37,975 bases of DNA from a virus (IMGVR_UViG_2534681604_000008:1-37975), one strand, 5' to 3'; shown: positions 5,489 to 17,017, numbered from the stretch's first letter. A program made the numbers and translations. The notes: generated by a model not told the origin, from the sequence alone.

Positions 5489-5815
5489 TCAAATAAGTGG
5501 TTTGCTGCCTAATTTCATTTTCTGGCGACCAACACAAGTCACACCCATTTCACTGCGTGGCTTGCTGTACCATGTGCGCTGATTCTTGCGCTCAATACGT
5601 TGCAGGTTGCTTTCAATCTGTTCGTGGTATTCAGCCAGCACTGTAAGGTCTATCGGATTCAGTGCGCTTTCTACTCGTGATTTCGGTTTGCGATTCAGCG
5701 AGAGAATGGGGCGGTTAACTGGTTTTGCGCTTACCCCAACCAACAGGGGATTTGCTGCTTTCCATTCAGCCTGTTTCTCTGCGCGACGTTCGCGGCGGCG
5801 TGTTTGTGCATCCAT
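5489..5815 (-). CDS. N: Antitermination protein N (lambda-type)
   Basis: Internal start gives MDAQTRRRERRAEKQAEWKAANPLLVGVSAKPVNRPILSLNRKPKSRVESALNPIDLTVLAEYHEQIESNLQRIERKNQRTWYSKP..., essentially lambda N with its arginine-rich motif; AGGAG RBS; nutL upstream. Confidence 0.9.
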   Translation of the reverse strand: MDAQTRRRERRAEKQAEWKAANPLLVGVSAKPVNRPILSLNRKPKSRVESALNPIDLTVLAEYHEQIESNLQRIERKNQRTWYSKPRSEMGVTCVGRQKMKLGSKPLI

Positions 5816-5925
5816 CTGGATTCTCCTGTCAGTTAGCTTTGAGTAACGCGCCGTGATGCTTATCTCCACGGTTGCTGTCTTGCTGCTGCATTTCGCGCTA
5901 CTCAAAGCTTTCTGCTTTGAATGCT

Positions 5926-6445: not shown

Positions 6446-7132
6446 TCAAACTTTTGGCAGATCGTCCTGGTCTACGTACCTGGTGTGTTTCACAATAGCT
6501 GAAACAAAATGCATTTTATCAACTTCTTCAACAGGAAGAGTGATTGGGCGGTGATCACTGTTTATGCTACTAAACTGATAATCACCGTCTCTTGTTTTGT
6601 TCATGATCTTTATCATGTTGTGACCGTCTTTGGTCCTTACAAAGACTTCATCACCTGGATGTACTGGCGTATTTGGTTCAATAACAACATATTCTCCTGA
6701 CTGAATCCTTGGCCACATGCTGTCACCCTTAACCTTCAGACCGTAAGCATCTTTATCGCCGCTGTAGATGCTTAACCAACCGGATCTGAATTCAATCATA
6801 TCCACTGAGCCATCAACTCCCAAAACGGCTTCACCAATTACCGGAACAAAACCCGCACGAACGTTACCCGCAAACTCAAGATGGTCCGTAGCTCCAGCTT
6901 TACCATCTGCAAGCATGTCCATCCATCCGCGTGGGAGATTAAAAGATTTTTCAATTAGTTCCATCATATCGTCAGCAATGCGTTTTTTTCCGCTTTTTCC
7001 TTCCGGATACAGCATTCTGGAAACGTATGATGGTTCCCTTTCTATTCGACGAGCCAACTCTGAGGCCTTTCCATTACAGAATCGGTCTCTTATCTCTATC
7101 AGCCTTAGTCGTCTTTGTTCGTATTTATCCAT
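6446..7132 (-). CDS. cI: CI-type prophage repressor (HTH plus LexA/S24 autopeptidase domain)
   Basis: 228 aa; N-terminal HTH (ASELARRIEREPSYVSRML), Ala-Gly cleavage site (FAGNV), GDSMWP serine motif and a downstream Lys, consistent with RecA-stimulated autocleavage; divergent from cro across operators. Confidence 0.85.
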   Translation of the reverse strand: MDKYEQRRLRLIEIRDRFCNGKASELARRIEREPSYVSRMLYPEGKSGKKRIADDMMELIEKSFNLPRGWMDMLADGKAGATDHLEFAGNVRAGFVPVIGEAVLGVDGSVDMIEFRSGWLSIYSGDKDAYGLKVKGDSMWPRIQSGEYVVIEPNTPVHPGDEVFVRTKDGHNMIKIMNKTRDGDYQFSSINSDHRPITLPVEEVDKMHFVSAIVKHTRYVDQDDLPKV

Positions 7133-7587: not shown

Positions 7588-7869
7588 ATGGGTACTATTG
7601 CAACTAAAAGCAAGAAAGCGGCTCGCATCGAGTCAGCCTTGCTGAACAAACTGGCACTGATGGGGCAGAAGACATTCGCTCGAGCAATGGGGGTTCCTGA
7701 ATATCAGGTAAGCCGATGGAAGAATGGTTTCTTCTCGCAGGTAAGCATGATGCTGGCTGTTCTGGAATACGGAATCGAAGACGATGAAATGGCTGAGCTG
7801 ACTAAGCGGCTTGCCAATTACCTGACAAAAGAAAAAGCCCCGAAGAACGGCGAATTCTTCGAGGCCTGA
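7588..7869 (+). CDS. cII: CII transcriptional activator
   Basis: 93 aa; ...[58 protein letters not shown]... aligns closely with lambda CII (recalled). Confidence 0.85.
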
Positions 7870-7903: not shown

Positions 7904-8050
7904 ATGACAAAACAACTCAGTCCTTACCAGGACAAAATTCACAAACACATACTACGTGATCGCTTCCTGTCCAGCTTCAAGCAGCCTGGTCGATTCCGGG
8001 CTGAGTTGGAAAAAGTGAAGCTGATGCAGAAGGAGAAAGGTCATGAGTAA
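7904..8050 (+). CDS. Small hypothetical protein between cII and O (about 48 aa)
   Basis: Hand-found ORF with AGGAG RBS; overlaps the start of O. Coordinates approximate. Confidence 0.35.
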
Positions 8051-8903
8051 TCTTGCAACCGTAACACATTTAAGGCCTTCACAACGGCCTGTGGAGCGTC
8101 GTGTGGCAGAAGTTGAAGATGGTTATACCCGTCTTGCAAATGCCCTGTATGAAGAGCTTATCGGCGCAGATTTAACGAAAAATCAGAGCAAGGTTGCCCA
8201 CGCCATATGCCGTAAAACATACGGCTACGGTAAAAAGATGGATCGCATCTCTGATAGTCAGTTAGCTCAAATTACCAGGCTGCCAAGACAGAAGGTAAAC
8301 AAGGCCAAGAATGAGCTTATCGCGATGAAGGTTATCCTTCGCGAAGGCCAGCAAATCGGGCCTAACAAGAACATCGAGGAATGGCAAATCGAAGGGTGTC
8401 ACTACTCTGGTGATAATGTCACTGCATTGGTGACAAAAAGTGTCACCAAAACGGTGACAGCGCTGTCACCAAAACAGGGACACACAAAAGAAACTATTAC
8501 AAAAGAAAAAAGAAATAATAAAAACACTATGTCCGAAAGTGTTCGGACGGAGTGTGAAAAATCACCTGACCGTCACGAAGAAACCGACAAGGCATTCGAG
8601 GAAATATTCTGGTGTGCAGGCATGCGGAAGGCCGGGAAGAAAAACGCAGCTTCGGCATTCAGAACACAGTTCAGGGAATGGCGTAAAACTACCAGGGGTA
8701 CGGCAAGCGAGTTTGCCACGATGCTGGCAGAAGACATCGCATGCAGGAATGGTAAGCAGTTCGGATTCGACAGGTTGTTACCATCGAGCTACCTGAACGG
8801 TCAGCGCTGGAACGACGAGAAGCCAGAAACTATTCAACCACAATCCAAACCATCATCCGCAATCACCGTATCGAAAACTGGCTACGTGTTTTTCGACAGG
8901 TGA
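8043..8903 (+). CDS. O: Replication initiator O-like protein (contains the origin iterons)
   Basis: 286 aa in the lambda O position downstream of cII; the gene encloses inverted-repeat iterons and an AT-rich stretch, as ori-lambda does within O. Confidence 0.7.
8409..8530. repeat. Origin-like iterons (GGTGA(T/C)A...TGTCAC(C/T) inverted repeats) followed by an AT-rich segment
   Basis: GGTGATAATGTCACT, GGTGACAAAAAGTGTCACC and GGTGACAGCGCTGTCACC in tandem, then an A-rich run at 8485-8530. Confidence 0.6.
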
Positions 8904-9010: not shown

Positions 9011-10891
9011 ATGACGCCAAGTGAACTCAGTGACCTGCTTTGGGCGCAGGTTGACAGGGTGGCTCCGCACCTGTTGCCAAACGGCAAGAAAGAGGGGCAT
9101 GAGTGGGTTGCCGGTAACGTCAACGGTGACAAGGGAAACAGCCTTAAGGTCAACCTTAGCGGCAAGAAAAAATGGGCTGATTTCGCTGAGGGAGACGGCG
9201 GTGACATGCTTGATTTGTGGATGGCATGTCGTGGAATTAACCTGCATCAGGCTATGCAGGAAGCGAAAGCCTTTCTCGGAATCAAGGATGACGATCACCA
9301 TTTCGATGCCAAACGTGAGAAGAAATTCTCCAGACCTGACCGCAAGAAAATCGCCCGCTACGTTACCAGAACAGAATCCCATCTTGAGTACCTGCAATCG
9401 CGTGGCATATCGCCAGAAATCGTAAAGCGCTACGAGGTTGTCAGCGGCAAGGTGTGGAATGGAGAGCGAGAACTGGATGCTCTGGTGATTCCGTACAAAC
9501 GCGATGGTGAGTTGTTGCAGGTAAAGCGAATCAGCACTGAGCGCCCGGACGGGAAGAAAGTCATTATGGCAGAAGGTGATTGCGAACCTTGTCTGTTCGG
9601 ATGGCAGGCTCTGGACGCTGGCGTGAGGGCGGTTGTACTTTGCGAAGGCGAAATTGATTGTATGAGCTATGCGCAATACGGCATCTCGGCGTTATCCGTG
9701 CCGTTTGGTGGCGGGAAAGGCGCTAAGCAACAGTGGATTGAGTTTGAGTATCACAACCTCGACAGGTTTGAGGAAATATTCATCTCGATGGATGTTGATG
9801 ATGTTGGTCGTGAAGCCGCAAGGGAAATCGCAAGCCGACTCGGTGAACATCGTTGCCGTCTTGTTACTCTGCCGTACAAAGACATCAACGAATGCCTGAT
9901 GAACGGTGTTACCGAGGATGAAATCTGGCAGTACATCGGCACGGCATCCTACTTCGATCCTGAAGAACTCTACAGCGCGCGAGAGTTTTACCAGGACACT
10001 ATCAACGCTTTCTACGGCAAGCAGCAGTATCTGTTTAATCCACCGTGGGAATCTCTGGCAGATAAATTCCAGTTCCGTGAGGCAGAGTTGACGCTGGTCA
10101 ATGGTGTGAACGGTCACGGAAAAACGGAGGTTGTCGGGCATATGGCACTTGAGGCAATGCGTCAGGGTGTGAAGACGTGCATCGCGTCACTTGAGCTGAA
10201 GCCTGGTATTCTCCTTAAGCGCCTTACCCGTCAGGCGACGTGCTGCAAGATGCCGCCAGTGCTGGAAATTGACTCTGCATTTAAATTTTATGACGAAAGA
10301 CTTTGGGTGTTTGGCCTGACCGGAACGGCGAAAGCCGACAGGCTGATCGAAATATTCGACTACGCTCGCCGCCGATACGGGATCCAGTTATTCATCATCG
10401 ACAGCCTGATGAAATGTGGCATAGGCGACGATGACTATAACGGGCAGAAGGCGTTTGTTGACTCGATTTGCGACTTCAAAAACAAAACAAACTCCCACGT
10501 CATTCTCGTTACTCACTCGCGAAAAGGAGACAGCGAAGAAAAACCAACCGGGAAAATGGACGTAAAAGGCTCTGGAGCGATAACAGACCTGACAGACAAC
10601 CTTTTCATCATCTGGCGTAACAAGGCTCGCGAGAGAGCGTTACAGAGAGTTCAGAGTGGTGAAAAGATGTCAGAGAAGGACGAACAGCTACTGGCATCTC
10701 CGGCATCTGTTTTGATGCTTGAAAAACAACGTAACGGCGAAGGTTGGGAAGGTGGTGTCCCGTTGTTCCTTGACGAGCAATCGCACCAGTTCCTGCAACT
10801 TGAATCAGGGTCGCCATATAGCTACATCGCTAATATGCCGAAATCGGAATATGACGAGGCGTGGCGACAGGAAAACGTGACGGAGTATTAA
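9011..10891 (+). CDS. Fused DNA primase (Toprim) and DnaB-like/P4-alpha-like replicative helicase
   Basis: 626 aa; Toprim-like acidic motifs (VVLCEGEIDCMS, ISMDVDDVGREAA); Walker A GVNGHGKT and Walker B-like LFIIDS in the C-terminal half; occupies the lambda P position. Confidence 0.8.
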   Translation: MTPSELSDLLWAQVDRVAPHLLPNGKKEGHEWVAGNVNGDKGNSLKVNLSGKKKWADFAEGDGGDMLDLWMACRGINLHQAMQEAKAFLGIKDDDHHFDAKREKKFSRPDRKKIARYVTRTESHLEYLQSRGISPEIVKRYEVVSGKVWNGERELDALVIPYKRDGELLQVKRISTERPDGKKVIMAEGDCEPCLFGWQALDAGVRAVVLCEGEIDCMSYAQYGISALSVPFGGGKGAKQQWIEFEYHNLDRFEEIFISMDVDDVGREAAREIASRLGEHRCRLVTLPYKDINECLMNGVTEDEIWQYIGTASYFDPEELYSAREFYQDTINAFYGKQQYLFNPPWESLADKFQFREAELTLVNGVNGHGKTEVVGHMALEAMRQGVKTCIASLELKPGILLKRLTRQATCCKMPPVLEIDSAFKFYDERLWVFGLTGTAKADRLIEIFDYARRRYGIQLFIIDSLMKCGIGDDDYNGQKAFVDSICDFKNKTNSHVILVTHSRKGDSEEKPTGKMDVKGSGAITDLTDNLFIIWRNKARERALQRVQSGEKMSEKDEQLLASPASVLMLEKQRNGEGWEGGVPLFLDEQSHQFLQLESGSPYSYIANMPKSEYDEAWRQENVTEY

Positions 10892-10918
10892 ATGACCATC
10901 TACATCACTGAGCTTGTA

Positions 10919-10953
10919 ACAGGCCTGCTGGTAATCGCAGGCCTTTTTATTTG
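10919..10953 (+). terminator. Intrinsic terminator after the replication module (tR2-like)
   Basis: AGGCCTGC-TGGTAATC-GCAGGCCT stem-loop followed by TTTTTATTT. Confidence 0.5.
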
Positions 10954-10967
10954 GGGGAGAGTAAATC

Positions 10968-11174
10968 GTGGCTGAGTTTATGCTCGTCGCACTCAAATGC
11001 GTTGGCGTTGGATGGATTCTTCTGACGTTTTTTATTGTTCTGCATGGCTACATTCGTCTTGTGAATGACGGTAAAGACCCATGGTATACGTTGTTTGGCG
11101 CTACATTTGTCTGGGTGATTATCGGTGTTATGCCTGTCGCTATAGCAAAAATGGCGTGGCGTTTTGTGAGTTGA
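10968..11174 (+). CDS. Small two-helix membrane protein (GTG start)
   Basis: 68 aa, two hydrophobic segments (WILLTFFIVLHGYI and FVWVIIGVMPVAIA); GGGGAGAG RBS; first gene after the tR2-like terminator. Confidence 0.45.
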   Translation: MAEFMLVALKCVGVGWILLTFFIVLHGYIRLVNDGKDPWYTLFGATFVWVIIGVMPVAIAKMAWRFVS

Positions 11175-11191
11175 ACTGAGGGTAAGTATCG

Positions 11192-11518
11192 ATGGACGAA
11201 TCAAGAAAGCAGTTTGAAGAATGGTTTGAAAATTACACCGGATGTGATCCTAAAAATAAAATATACGCCAATATGGTTGAGATGTATTGGCAAGCGTGGC
11301 AGGCATCGCGAGCAGCTATTGAACTGGATATCGACTGGCCCGAATCGAATGACGACTTTTGGAAAGATGGTGAAGAAGGTGCTTATGCGATGGGGCATGA
11401 GGATGGGAAGGACAAAACGGTAATTGCAGTGATGAAAGCTATCAGAGCCGCTGGAATTAAAGAGAAGAATTTCGATGAAGCAAATATACATACTTCGCAA
11501 CGAAGCAATCAGAAATAA
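11192..11518 (+). CDS. Hypothetical acidic phage protein (ren position)
   Basis: 108 aa ORF; its 3' end overlaps the ninB start by 44 nt, so the true C-terminus is uncertain. Confidence 0.4.
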   Translation: MDESRKQFEEWFENYTGCDPKNKIYANMVEMYWQAWQASRAAIELDIDWPESNDDFWKDGEEGAYAMGHEDGKDKTVIAVMKAIRAAGIKEKNFDEANIHTSQRSNQK

Positions 11519-11921
11519 CGCCATAGACGCCATTCTCTCACTACCCATCGACGACAAGTCACCCCACGAAGTCCACGTTAGAGAACCCAAACGCAGCAAA
11601 GCGCAGAATGACCGTATGTGGCCGATGCTGAACGATGTTTCGCGTCAGGTGCTATGGCATGGTCAACGGCTGACGCCGGAAGACTGGAAAGACCTGTTCA
11701 CTGCCTTGTGGCTTAAGACCAAAAAAATGGAGCAAAGAAGTGCGCCTGGTATCGACGGTGGCGTTGTTATGCTTGGCGTTCGTACCAGCAAAATGCGAAA
11801 GGCCAGCATGACTGAGCTTATCGAAATCATGTTCTGGTTCGGCTCAGAGCGCAACGTGCGGTGGAGTGATGACTCCCGGCGAGAGTATGAATGGTCACAA
11901 CGAAAAGGGAAGGCTGCATGA
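11475..11921 (+). CDS. ninB: NinB (Orf-family recombination mediator)
   Basis: 148 aa; alignable with lambda NinB in size and motifs (...DVSRQVLWHGQRLTPEDWKDLFTA..., ...RWSDDSRREYEW...), from recall. Confidence 0.8.
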   Translation: MKQIYILRNEAIRNNAIDAILSLPIDDKSPHEVHVREPKRSKAQNDRMWPMLNDVSRQVLWHGQRLTPEDWKDLFTALWLKTKKMEQRSAPGIDGGVVMLGVRTSKMRKASMTELIEIMFWFGSERNVRWSDDSRREYEWSQRKGKAA

Positions 11922-12445
11922 CTATCAAATCAAATACGCCAGCACACGACAAGGACTGCTGGCAAACGCCGCTTTGGCTTTTTGATGCACTGGATATTGA
12001 GTTTGGATTCTGGCTGGATTCGGCAGCGAGCGACAAAAATGCTCTGTGCGCTCACTGGCTAACTGAGGCCGACGACGCGCTCAATTCTGAGTGGGTAAGC
12101 CACGGTGCAATCTGGAATAACCCACCGTACAGCAATATCAGGCCGTGGGTGGAAAAAGCCGCTGAGCAGTGTATACAACAGCGACAGACGGTAGTGATGC
12201 TTGTGCCAGAGGATATGTCTGTCGGATGGTTCAGCAAGGCTCTGGAGAGTGTTGACGAAGTTCGTATTATCACTGATGGACGGATTAATTTTATCGAACC
12301 ATCGACAGGGCTGGAGAAGAAGGGAAACAGCAAAGGCTCCATGCTGCTGATTTGGCGACCGTTCATCAGTCCTCGACGGATGTTTACTACCGTATCCAAA
12401 GCGGCATTGATGGCGATCGGGCAGGGCGTCAGGAGGGCGGCATGA
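11918..12445 (+). CDS. Phage DNA N6-adenine methyltransferase (Dam-like), in the ninC position
   Basis: NPPY catalytic motif ([10 protein letters not shown]); ATGA overlap with the ninB stop; roughly 175 aa from the coupled start. Confidence 0.8.
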
Positions 12446-13980: not shown

Positions 13981-14623
13981 TGGCAGCAAATACCGAAATA
14001 TTTGGGTAGTTGGCGATCTGCACGGATGCTACACGAACCTGATGAAAAAACTGGAGACGATAGGATTCGACACCAAAAAAGACCTGCTTATCTCGGTTGG
14101 CGATTTGGTCGATCGCGGTACAGAGAACGTCGAATGTCTGGAATTAATCACATTCCCCTGGTTCCGAGCTGTACGTGGAAACCATGAGCAAATGATGATT
14201 GATGGCTTATCAGAGCGTGGAAACGTCAATCACTGGCTGTTTAATGGCGGTGGCTGGTTCTTTAATCTCGATTACGACAAAGAAATTCTGGCTAAAGCTC
14301 TTGCCCATAAAGCAGATGAACTTCCGTTAATCATCGAGCTGGTGAGCAAAGATAAAAAATATGTCATTTGCCACGCCGATTATCCTTGTAACGAATACGA
14401 GTTTGGAAAGTCAGTTGATCATCAGCAGGTAATCTGGAACCGCGAACGAATCAGCAACTCACAAGACGGGATCGTGAAAGAAATCAAAGGAGCGGACACG
14501 TTCATCTTTGGTCATACGCCAGCAGTGAAACCACTCAAGTTTGCCAACCAGATGTATATCGATACCGGCGCAGTGTTCTGCGGAAACCTCACATTGATTC
14601 AGGTACAGGGAGAAGGCGCATGA
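13958..14623 (+). CDS. ninI: NinI Ser/Thr protein phosphatase (lambda PPase family, calcineurin-like)
   Basis: 221 aa from the internal ATG; metallophosphatase motifs GDLHG, GDLVDRG, GNHE. Confidence 0.85.
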
Positions 14624-15243
14624 GACTCGAAAGCGTGGCTAAATTTCATTCGCCAAAAAGCCCGATGATGAGTGACTCACCACGGGCTACGGCTTCTGAC
14701 TCTCTTTCCGGTACTGATGTGATGGCTGCTATGGGGATGGCGCAATCACAAGCCGGATTCGGAATGGCTGCATTCTGCGGTAAGCATGAACTCAGCCAGA
14801 ACGACAAACAAAAGGCTATCAACTATCTGATGCAATTTGCACACAAGGTATCGGGGAAATACCGTGGTGTGGCAAAGCTCGAAGGAAATACTAAGGCAAA
14901 GGTACTGCAAGTGCTCGCAACATTCGCTTATGCGGATTATTGCCGTAGTGCCGCGACGCCGGGCGCAAGATGCAGAGATTGCCACGGTACAGGCCGTTCG
15001 GTTGATATATCAAAAACAGAGCTGTGGGGGAGAGTTGTTGAGAAAGAATGCGGAAGATGCAAAGGTGTCGGCTATTCAAGAATGCCAGCAAGCGCCGCAT
15101 ATCGCGCTGTAACGATGCTAATCCCAAACCTTACTCAACCCACCTGGTCACGCACTGTTAAGCCGCTGTATGACGCTCTGGTGGTGCAATGCCACAAAGA
15201 AGAGTCAATCGCAGACAACATTTTGAATGCGGTCACACGTTAG
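14620..15243 (+). CDS. Q: Late-gene antiterminator Q (lambda-type)
   Basis: 207 aa, near-identical to recalled lambda Q, including the zinc-finger cysteines CRDCHGTG...CGRCKG. Confidence 0.9.
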
Positions 15244-15799: not shown

Positions 15800-16123
15800 A
15801 TGAAGATGCCAGAAAAACATGACCTGTTAGCCGCCATTCTCGCGGCAAAGGAACAAGGCATCGGGGCAATCCTTGCGTTTGCAATGGCGTACCTTCGCGG
15901 CAGGTATAATGGCGGTGCGTTTACAAAAACAGTAATCGACGCAACGATGTGCGCCATTATCGCCTGGTTCATTCGTGACCTTCTCGACTTCGCCGGACTA
16001 AGTAGCAACCTCGCTTATATAACGAGCGTGTTCATCGGCTACATCGGTACTGACTCGATTGGTTCGCTTATCAAACGCTTCGCTGCTAAAAAAGCCGGAG
16101 TAGAAGATGGTGGAAATCAATAA
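15800..16123 (+). CDS. S: Holin S (class I, dual-start motif MKMPEK)
   Basis: 107 aa [34 protein letters not shown]...; lambda S. Confidence 0.9.
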
Positions 16124-16583
16124 TCAACGTAAGGCGTTCCTCGATATGCTGGCGTGGTCGGAGGGAACTGATAACGGACGGCAGAAAACCAGAAATCATG
16201 GTTATGACGTCATTGTAGGCGGAGAGCTATTCACTGATTACTCCGATCACCCTCGCAAACTTGTCACGCTAAACCCCAAACTCAAATCAACAGCCGCCGG
16301 ACGCTACCAGCTTCTTTCCCGTTGGTGGGATGCCTACCGCAAGCAGCTTGGCCTGAAAGACTTCTCTCCGAAAAGTCAGGACGCTGTGGCATTGCAGCAG
16401 ATTAAGGAGCGTGGCGCTTTGCCGATGATTGATCGCGGTGATATTCGTCAGGCAATCGACCGTTGCAGCAATATCTGGGCTTCACTGCCGGGCGCTGGTT
16501 ATGGTCAGTTCGAGCATAAGGCTGACAACCTGATTGCAAAATTCAAAGAAGCAGGCGGAACGGTCAGAGAGATTGAGGTATGA
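16107..16583 (+). CDS. R: Endolysin R (lytic transglycosylase)
   Basis: 158 aa [24 protein letters not shown]... with the catalytic Glu in the lambda R context. Confidence 0.9.
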
Positions 16584-17017
16584 GCAGAGTCACCGCGATT
16601 ATCTCCGCTCTGGTTATCTGCATCATCGTCTGCCTGTCATGGGCTGTTAATCATTACCGTGATAACGCCATCGCCTACAAAGAGCAGCGCGATAAAGCCA
16701 CATCCACAATCGCTGACATGCAGAAGCGTCAACGTGATGTAGCAGAACTTGACGCCAGATACACAAAGGAGCTTGCTGATGCTAACGCGACTATCGAAAG
16801 TCTCCGTGCTGATGTTTCTGCTGGTCGTAAGCGCCTGCAAGTCGCCGCCACCTGTGCAAAGTCAACGACCGGAGCCAGCGGCATGGGCGATGGAGAAAGC
16901 CCAGGACTTACAGCAGATGCTGAACTCAATTATTACCGTCTCCGAAGTGGAATCGACAAGATAACCGCGCAGGTTAACTACCTGCAGGAATACATCAGGA
17001 CGCAATGCTTAAAATAA
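16580..17017 (+). CDS. Rz: Rz i-spanin
   Basis: 145 aa; N-terminal TM ([18 protein letters not shown]) and coiled-coil periplasmic domain; N-terminus matches lambda Rz, C-terminal half divergent. Confidence 0.8.
16779..16964 (+). CDS. Rz1: Rz1 o-spanin lipoprotein, embedded in the +1 frame of Rz
   Basis: AGGAG RBS 8 nt upstream of ATG; signal peptide with lipobox (LLVVSAC) and a proline-rich mature part. Confidence 0.7.

Follow-up and report, generated by a model that had tools for sequence, protein, structure and literature searches.

Which genes lie between the replication genes and ninB of this lambdoid phage, are they genuine genes, and what might they do? The question concerns a window of 37,975 nt, the whole stretch of DNA analysed here, in which an earlier note had described two open reading frames (ORFs) after a terminator: a GTG-started 68-aa protein with two hydrophobic helices, and an acidic 108-aa protein overlapping ninB by 44 nt. 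Both descriptions hold. The first agrees with hydropathy, with an AlphaFold2 (AF2) model and with a DeepTMHMM note on the homologue from Kapi1, and the second is confirmed by the coordinates and by the match to NinB. The analysis shows that two accessory cassettes of the lambdoid nin gene pool occupy the interval between tR2 and ninB. Both proteins belong to already catalogued families of hypothetical proteins, and lambda tR2, which forms the junction, is likewise known; the significance of the locus goes little beyond annotation and corrections.

Genomic Setting

The window comes from a lambdoid, P22/HK620-like genome with classical gene order. It encodes an N-like antiterminator (5489-5905, minus strand), a cI-type repressor (6446-7132, minus strand), cII (7588-7869), O (8043-8903) and a primase/helicase with Toprim and DnaB-like domains (9011-10891, plus strand; Pfam Toprim_2 with E 3e-12, AAA_25 and DnaB_C). 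The ninB gene, coding for the Orf recombination mediator, occupies 11475-11921 on the plus strand and is followed by the further nin genes dam, ninX and ninG. Q (14620-15243), a holin of the lambda S type (15800-16123, E 2e-30) and Rz (16580-17017) lie downstream. The order of cI, cII, O, Q, holin S and Rz is that of lambda. The dam ORF as listed (11891-12445) begins at an ATG at 11891, within ninB; a later ATG, at 11918, is probably the true start. It overlaps the ninB stop as ATGA, and mEp213 is annotated in this way.

A simple scan of both strands of 10500-12000 revealed no promoter-like site, although weak or non-sigma-70 promoters could escape such a scan. An Rfam search of 10400-12000 returned two chance-level matches, far under the gathering scores.

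The tR2 Terminator and the ninA Mini-ORF

The helicase gene is followed by an intrinsic terminator at 10921-10952 on the plus strand, which was recognized both by a terminator scan and in an alignment of five sequences. Its hairpin (10921-10944) is predicted to have an 8-bp stem with 6 G-C pairs and an 8-nt loop; the arms of the stem are AGGCCTGC and GCAGGCCT, and TTTTTATTT then runs to 10952. A Shine-Dalgarno-like element, GGGGGAGAG, follows at 10953-10961 (plus strand). Window positions 10880-10985 were aligned with the lambda ren-ninB spacer, the P22 gene 12-ninA-ninB segment, the 933W ren-L0091 segment and HK022. The hairpin, the T-run and GGGGGAGAG turned out to be invariant in all five sequences (alignment columns 42-82), and window 10892-10961 is nearly identical to the segments of lambda, P22 and 933W. 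The element is named tR2 in the HK620 record and 'terminator' in the P22 and Emek records. By sequence and predicted structure, then, the terminator after the helicase gene is lambda tR2. The fold of the 71-nt terminator region is unremarkable (z-score -0.43), and the assignment is made because of the terminator pattern and the identity with lambda tR2, not because of the fold score.

The whole terminator is enclosed in a 27-aa mini-ORF, putative ninA (10892-10975, plus strand), whose product is MTIYITELVTGLLVIAGLFIWGRVNRG. This ORF matches phrog_5907 with an E-value of 1.1e-18 and bears the name ninA in HK620, SPN9CC, HK630 and P22, where it stands in the same arrangement at the stop of the last replication gene. 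The TAA of the helicase gene (10889-10891) abuts the ninA ATG (TAA/ATG), and the ninA stop overlaps the GTG of the 68-aa ORF (GTGGCTGA). The description of a tR2-like terminator was thus sound, and even cautious since the element appears to be tR2 itself, but the enclosing ninA ORF had been missed.

The 84-nt ninA segment is nearly invariant in its nucleotides across 40 distinct upstream contexts and is free of synonymous variation. Its flanks vary, with at least six different left neighbours and with right-neighbour alleles that share 51-100% identity. In HK022 and Stx2a-F578 the hairpin half alone is retained from the segment, and for this reason the conserved unit is evidently the terminator with the ribosome-binding site (RBS). 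Some Salmonella alleles (P0012, P0019) have ninA and the 68-aa ORF fused in a single frame. Ribosomes translating ninA could hinder formation of the tR2 hairpin, which would make tR2 translation-sensitive. A GGAG lies 8 nt upstream of the GTG at 10968, and the GGGGGAGAG element also precedes ninB in lambda and P22. The tR2/RBS segment may be regarded as a universal left junction for the swapping of nin cassettes.

Position Relative to ren

The earlier note had placed both ORFs in the slot of lambda ren. Lambda carries ren at 40280-40570, before the tR2 segment, and its ninB begins at 40644. P22 has ninB directly after ninA. H-19B, 933W and JLK-2012 possess ren, and the ORFs of interest are found downstream of it, past tR2. 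Since ren is upstream of tR2 in lambda, H-19B, 933W and JLK-2012, the place occupied in the window is not the ren slot. The insertion slot is, as far as these alignments tell, the interval from tR2 to ninB, which is empty in lambda and P22. In those two phages the RBS after tR2 serves ninB, whereas in the window it serves the 68-aa gene, and ninB begins 507 nt further on; the 68-aa cassette has evidently taken over the RBS that serves ninB in lambda and P22.

Membership of either ORF in the Ren family was considered and rejected. Searches of Pfam and PHROG gave no Ren family match for either ORF and no sequence relationship, and the ORFs stand on the wrong side of tR2. The likeness to lambda Ren is confined to non-essential status and to a place between the replication genes and ninB. 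Unlike the ORFs in question, Ren is encoded upstream of tR2, and it coexists with them in H-19B, 933W and JLK-2012.

Coding Status and Conservation of the 68-aa Gene

The 68-aa ORF lies at 10968-11174 on the plus strand and starts with GTG. The 3.5 kb scanned contain 40 ORFs of at least 30 aa, and both ORFs of interest, taken alone, are within chance expectation; they are called genes because they are conserved, not because they are open. A tblastn search recovered the 68-aa ORF in 107 phage records, at full length and down to 51% identity. Conservation in related phages, on which the earlier note had staked its own reading, is therefore established. Among 92 fetched loci, representing 51 unique nucleotide sequences, the ORF always comprises 68 codons, with GTG as start codon in 89 loci and ATG in three.

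An alternative reading holds that the ORF is untranslated and is a by-product of the conserved tR2/RBS linker. It may appeal to the abundance of chance short ORFs here, to RefSeq HK620, where the 68-aa gene is unannotated, and to the antisense frame, which is open too (45 of 51 unique sequences). We nevertheless consider it very unlikely, as the frame is kept at 68 codons down to 51% identity, a good Shine-Dalgarno element is placed at 8-nt spacing and the AF2 model is confident. The sense frame, open in 50 of the 51 unique sequences, reveals the lowest pN/pS of all six frames (0.53, uncorrected), and differences by codon position number 609, 374 and 772, an excess at the third position. Among three clades dN/dS is 0.2-0.4 (Nei-Gojobori) with dS of about 1-2. 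Relatives of 60-66 aa, at 27-43% identity, still keep the motif W16, the turn N-x-G-x-D-P, W49, G53, P56 and W64. The comparative data and the structural model together indicate that the 68-aa ORF is a genuine gene.

The antisense frame holds an 85-aa ORF over the 68-aa gene (10947-11204, minus strand). Its pN/pS of 0.70 is above that of the sense frame, so the antisense ORF looks like a by-product of sense codon usage.

The upstream start deserves attention in annotation. Versions of 52-54 aa are listed for HK630, Huey and mEpX1; they begin at an internal ATG and lack most of helix 1. The N-terminus of clade 2 (MVELIFSAL...) has no internal Met nearby, and the upstream start must therefore be real. 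The short or missing calls in HK620 (L004), HK630 (L006), Huey (L089) and mEpX1 (L091) are annotation shortfalls, and the gene should be called at full length from the GTG in all four.

In the H-19B/Stx1-type allele, codon 15 has changed from GGA to an in-frame TGA, as seen in eight loci: H-19B itself (L002, 2577-2780), L075, L078-L081, L083 and L084. The 68-aa gene of this lineage is consequently lost, or else dependent on read-through. Because this allele carries a nonsense codon, the gene is taken to be dispensable. Under laboratory conditions nin genes in general can be dispensed with (PMC5630979), and a lysogen with a P22 ninA-ninH deletion is an entry in a strain table (PMC11016777). The 68-aa and 108-aa genes are both shown to be real and non-essential. 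With purifying selection that is moderate (omega about 0.3) and with one lineage that has lost the gene, any benefit of the 68-aa protein should be conditional.

The 108-aa Protein and Its Family

The second gene (11192-11518, plus strand) encodes an acidic protein of 108 aa with a pI of 4.7 and 22 D/E against 14 K/R residues. It matches phrog_343 with an E-value of 5e-31. An identical protein, P0034, is found on 149 contigs, and the precomputed annotation assigns PF26207 to P0034 and to all 120 homologues listed. The Pfam search carried out here gave no report of PF26207, presumably because the model was absent from it, and membership is taken from the precomputed annotation of P0034. PF26207 is named Phage_phiTE_015, and PGAP calls neighbouring alleles 'phiTE_015 family protein'.

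Proteins of this family consist of an N-terminus M-x-ESRKQFE, a hypervariable segment with indels, an invariant pivot WQASRAAIE and a C-domain ending in ...AIRAAGIKVKGE. In 198 fetched loci with PF26207 genes, the variable cassettes comprise about six unrelated kinds in 21 sequence variants of 22-42 aa. The first 45 residues of the C-domain exist in 36 variants of about five unrelated types, and cassettes and C-domains occur in assorted combinations. This modularity around WQASRAAIE suggests that cassettes are exchanged within the gene or that a recognition surface is diversifying. The protein of the window is itself, to judge from the alignments, a chimera joined at WQASRAAIE: the N-cassette is that of very common E. 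coli proteins of 87-88 aa, and the C-domain is a different one. With 933W L0091, mEp213 XSB40830 and ST64T orf-86 it has in common the N-terminus MDESRKQFE, the WQASRAAIE pivot and a C-domain ...AIRAAGIK.

The AF2 model of the 108-aa protein is mostly helical (H3-16, H23-42 and H72-86) and free of any beta-sheet module, with a pLDDT of only 68. A few NCBI records carry a name of the VOC/glyoxalase type. This candidate was rejected, as the 17.3 bits of Glyoxalase_4 fall short of the gathering cut-off of 27 and the beta-alpha-beta-beta-beta modules are absent from that low-confidence model. The PF26207 profile found nothing at E <= 1 among PDB sequences, and a Foldseek comparison of the model with viral structures returned uncharacterised phage proteins only, the best with an E-value of 3e-3. 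The protein is predicted to be soluble and helical with a swappable N-terminal cassette, which would fit target recognition in phage-host conflict.

The Overlap with ninB

The 108-aa protein can be divided into a core, residues 1-92 (11192-11467, plus strand), which corresponds to PF26207/phrog_343 in the alignments, and a read-on tail of 16 aa (NFDEANIHTSQRSNQK) with its stop (11468-11518, plus strand), delimited by family alignment and junction comparison. The tail and the 5' end of ninB share 11475-11518, an overlap of 44 nt in two different reading frames. Position 11475 is considered the true start of ninB because residues 1-131 of its product match positions 1-131 of 131 in Pfam NinB with an E-value of 1e-48.

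It had been suspected that so long an overlap hides a sequencing or frameshift problem, and most PF26207 members do stop about 16 residues earlier, at ...AAGIKVKGE. The canonical junction reads ...AAG GAG TAA CG ATG, in which the stop stands 2 nt before the ninB ATG and AAGGAG is the RBS of ninB. The junction of the window reads ...GAG AAG AAT TTC G ATG. Here the canonical stop is lost, and the first out-of-frame stop inside ninB is used; in place of an end at ...KVKGE, the allele has a tail of 16 aa over ninB. Four classes can be told apart: canonical alleles end at +2 nt, stop-less alleles end at -44 nt with the window type of ninB (12 loci including the window) and at -29 nt with the HK620 type, and an HK620-type ninB with one extra T gives -4 nt. 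The end point of a stop-less allele is thus set by the downstream ninB allele only.

An assembly or frameshift error is hardly credible as an explanation. The identical protein on 149 contigs speaks against it, the junction recurs in 10 further IMG/VR loci and in mEp213, whose annotation likewise shows an overlap of 44 nt, and the other ninB allele gives the ends at -29 and -4 exactly as its sequence predicts. Recurrence in independent assemblies refutes this reading. The same tail also occurs in five further clusters with other N-terminal cassettes. This comparison identifies the overlap as the result of a stop loss that has been inherited, with the tail of 16 residues as its by-product. Such stop loss regularly leads, in an allele-specific manner, to long overlaps with ninB in another frame, and these should not be 'repaired' in annotation.

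Independence of the Two Genes

Do the 68-aa gene and its PF26207 neighbour constitute an obligate two-gene module? Of the 92 loci with the 68-aa gene, 60 have the two side by side, a relative of the 68-aa protein at 43% identity has a PF26207 gene next to it with a 4-nt overlap, and PF26207 is nearby in three further distant contexts. The association was assessed in 160 loci of IMG/VR, with two ninB alleles as anchors and neither of the genes in question. Of 59 loci with the 68-aa gene, 45 had PF26207, versus 73 of 101 loci without it, in a rough comparison of phylogenetically non-independent loci, some of which are cut short upstream. The 68-aa gene stands without PF26207 in HK620, HK630, Kapi1, Huey and mEpX1, while PF26207 stands without the 68-aa gene in 933W and JLK-2012. 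The co-occurrence is explained by how common PF26207 is in nin regions generally and not by a functional link. The obligate module is quite unlikely, and the 2x2 count largely refutes a functional gene pair. By this rough test the two genes move independently, with no statistical link.

Structure and Family of the 68-aa Protein

The 68-aa product is basic (pI 9.0) and very hydrophobic (GRAVY 1.19). Its Kyte-Doolittle profile with a 19-residue frame has maxima of 2.35 (residues 6-25) and 2.26 (residues 42-60), and the polar turn RLVNDGKDPWY parts the two hydrophobic stretches. AF2, run with an 18-sequence alignment, predicts a helical hairpin of helices 2-33 and 38-67 with a mean pLDDT of 92.7. 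The DeepTMHMM note on the Kapi1 homologue in GenBank gives transmembrane helices 11-25 and 46-59. G53 and P56 are invariant and W16, W49 and W64 nearly so.

The protein matches phrog_1165 over residues 1-68 on profile positions 1-68 of 68 (E 1.9e-38). Members of this family, such as Kapi1_027, Emek gp63 ('orf68'), HK022_58 and SPN9CC_0027, share its length, its position after tR2 and the two transmembrane helices, and the allele of the window shows nothing notably different from them. The nearest database cluster shares 94% identity with it, and residues 3-68 recur at 100% identity on two IMG/VR contigs. Neither NCBIfam nor PADLOC (E <= 0.1) gave a match for the 68-aa or the 108-aa protein. 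Pfam gave sub-threshold matches only for the two proteins, namely T4SS_pilin (E 0.036) and Glyoxalase_4 (E 0.006), which were set aside as compositional or chance matches. A Foldseek search of the hairpin against the PDB returned generic helical hairpins only, e.g., ATP synthase c subunits, all with E > 1. In the literature on NinA, on both protein families and on membrane proteins of the nin region, no functional study of phrog_1165 or PF26207/phiTE_015 was found.

Class II holins are typically of this size and have two transmembrane helices. The 68-aa protein, with the same size and helix number, might accordingly be thought of as a lysis modulator, i.e., a class II holin, a pinholin or an antiholin-like protein, and the earlier note had entertained a holin-like function. 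This possibility is decidedly unlikely. No holin family is matched in Pfam at E <= 0.1, and the PHROG family is not annotated as lysis. The C-terminus past helix 2 (...AKMAWRFVS) amounts to only about 4-7 residues, without the charged tail of a holin. The gene belongs to a delayed-early operon. The phage has a lambda-S holin of its own about 4.6 kb further downstream, the lysis cassette with S and Rz being located at 15800-17017, and the H-19B-type allele of the 68-aa gene has a premature stop.

The small size, the high hydrophobicity and the basic character would also suit a membrane toxin or an abortive-infection effector, a reading that we consider unlikely. PADLOC has no match, neither an antisense promoter nor one of its own is predicted, and the gene is part of the phage's own lytic operon, where early killing of the host would hurt the phage. 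The invariant G53/P56, the near-invariant W16/W49/W64 and the fixed turn suggest a defined structure instead. Sequence-specific conservation in the family is concentrated in helix 2 and the turn, so that a defined interaction is likelier than generic membrane damage. A pore, a holin or a toxin is in each case an unlikely identity for this protein; our best guess, drawn by analogy, is a small inner-membrane regulator or exclusion factor that would act in lytic growth only.

Proposed Expression and Role

Following the lambda paradigm, the 68-aa and 108-aa genes would be delayed-early genes, expressed from N-modified pR transcripts in lytic growth only and not in the lysogen. Expression restricted to lytic growth is proposed because there is no promoter-like site nearby, the genes lie downstream of tR2 and the phage has an N-like antiterminator. 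Ribosomes may be relayed from the helicase gene to ninA and on to the 68-aa ORF through the stop-start overlaps TAA/ATG and GTGGCTGA.

The 68-aa protein would then insert into the membrane with both termini inside (N-in/C-in), K61 and R65 being cytoplasmic and the turn net-neutral. This orientation follows the positive-inside rule only and is, with the step that comes next, the weakest part of the scheme. By analogy with small membrane proteins that act as ligands, the hairpin may bind a larger inner-membrane protein. A plausible role, again by analogy, would be to block the entry of DNA from a superinfecting phage or to blunt a membrane-acting host defence during the lytic cycle. T4 Imm and similar proteins are small inner-membrane superinfection-exclusion proteins of roughly two helices that are made early in lytic infection. 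The likeness of the 68-aa protein to exclusion proteins of the Imm type is functional only, and no sequence or profile similarity was detected in Pfam.

The account that best explains the locus as a whole combines accessory nin cassettes, an overlap produced by stop loss, lytic-only expression and a 68-aa membrane protein that serves as a ligand or in exclusion; we regard it as moderately probable. A more specific version would have the phrog_1165 hairpin bind an inner-membrane protein and thereby act, in the lytic phase, as a membrane factor against superinfecting DNA entry or membrane-acting host defence. The ribosome relay would couple production of the hairpin to read-through of tR2, and termination would be sensitive both to translation and to N. 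This version we consider doubtful.

Distribution of the 68-aa Family

A profile search of 1.84 billion representative proteins yielded only 29 clusters of the 68-aa family. Where the context of distant relatives could be read, they are found among early genes on contigs that resemble temperate phages, three of them just downstream of replication or nin-type genes. The family is considered narrowly distributed because a scan of species-representative genomes found one locus only. If the exclusion or anti-defence role is true, phrog_1165 would add a small, narrowly distributed family to such factors. The one locus of that scan (L261, JAEZIN010000021.1) has 52% identity and lies on a 10-kb contig of a metagenome-assembled genome (MAG) labelled Bacillota, possibly a mis-binned contig of an enterobacterial phage.
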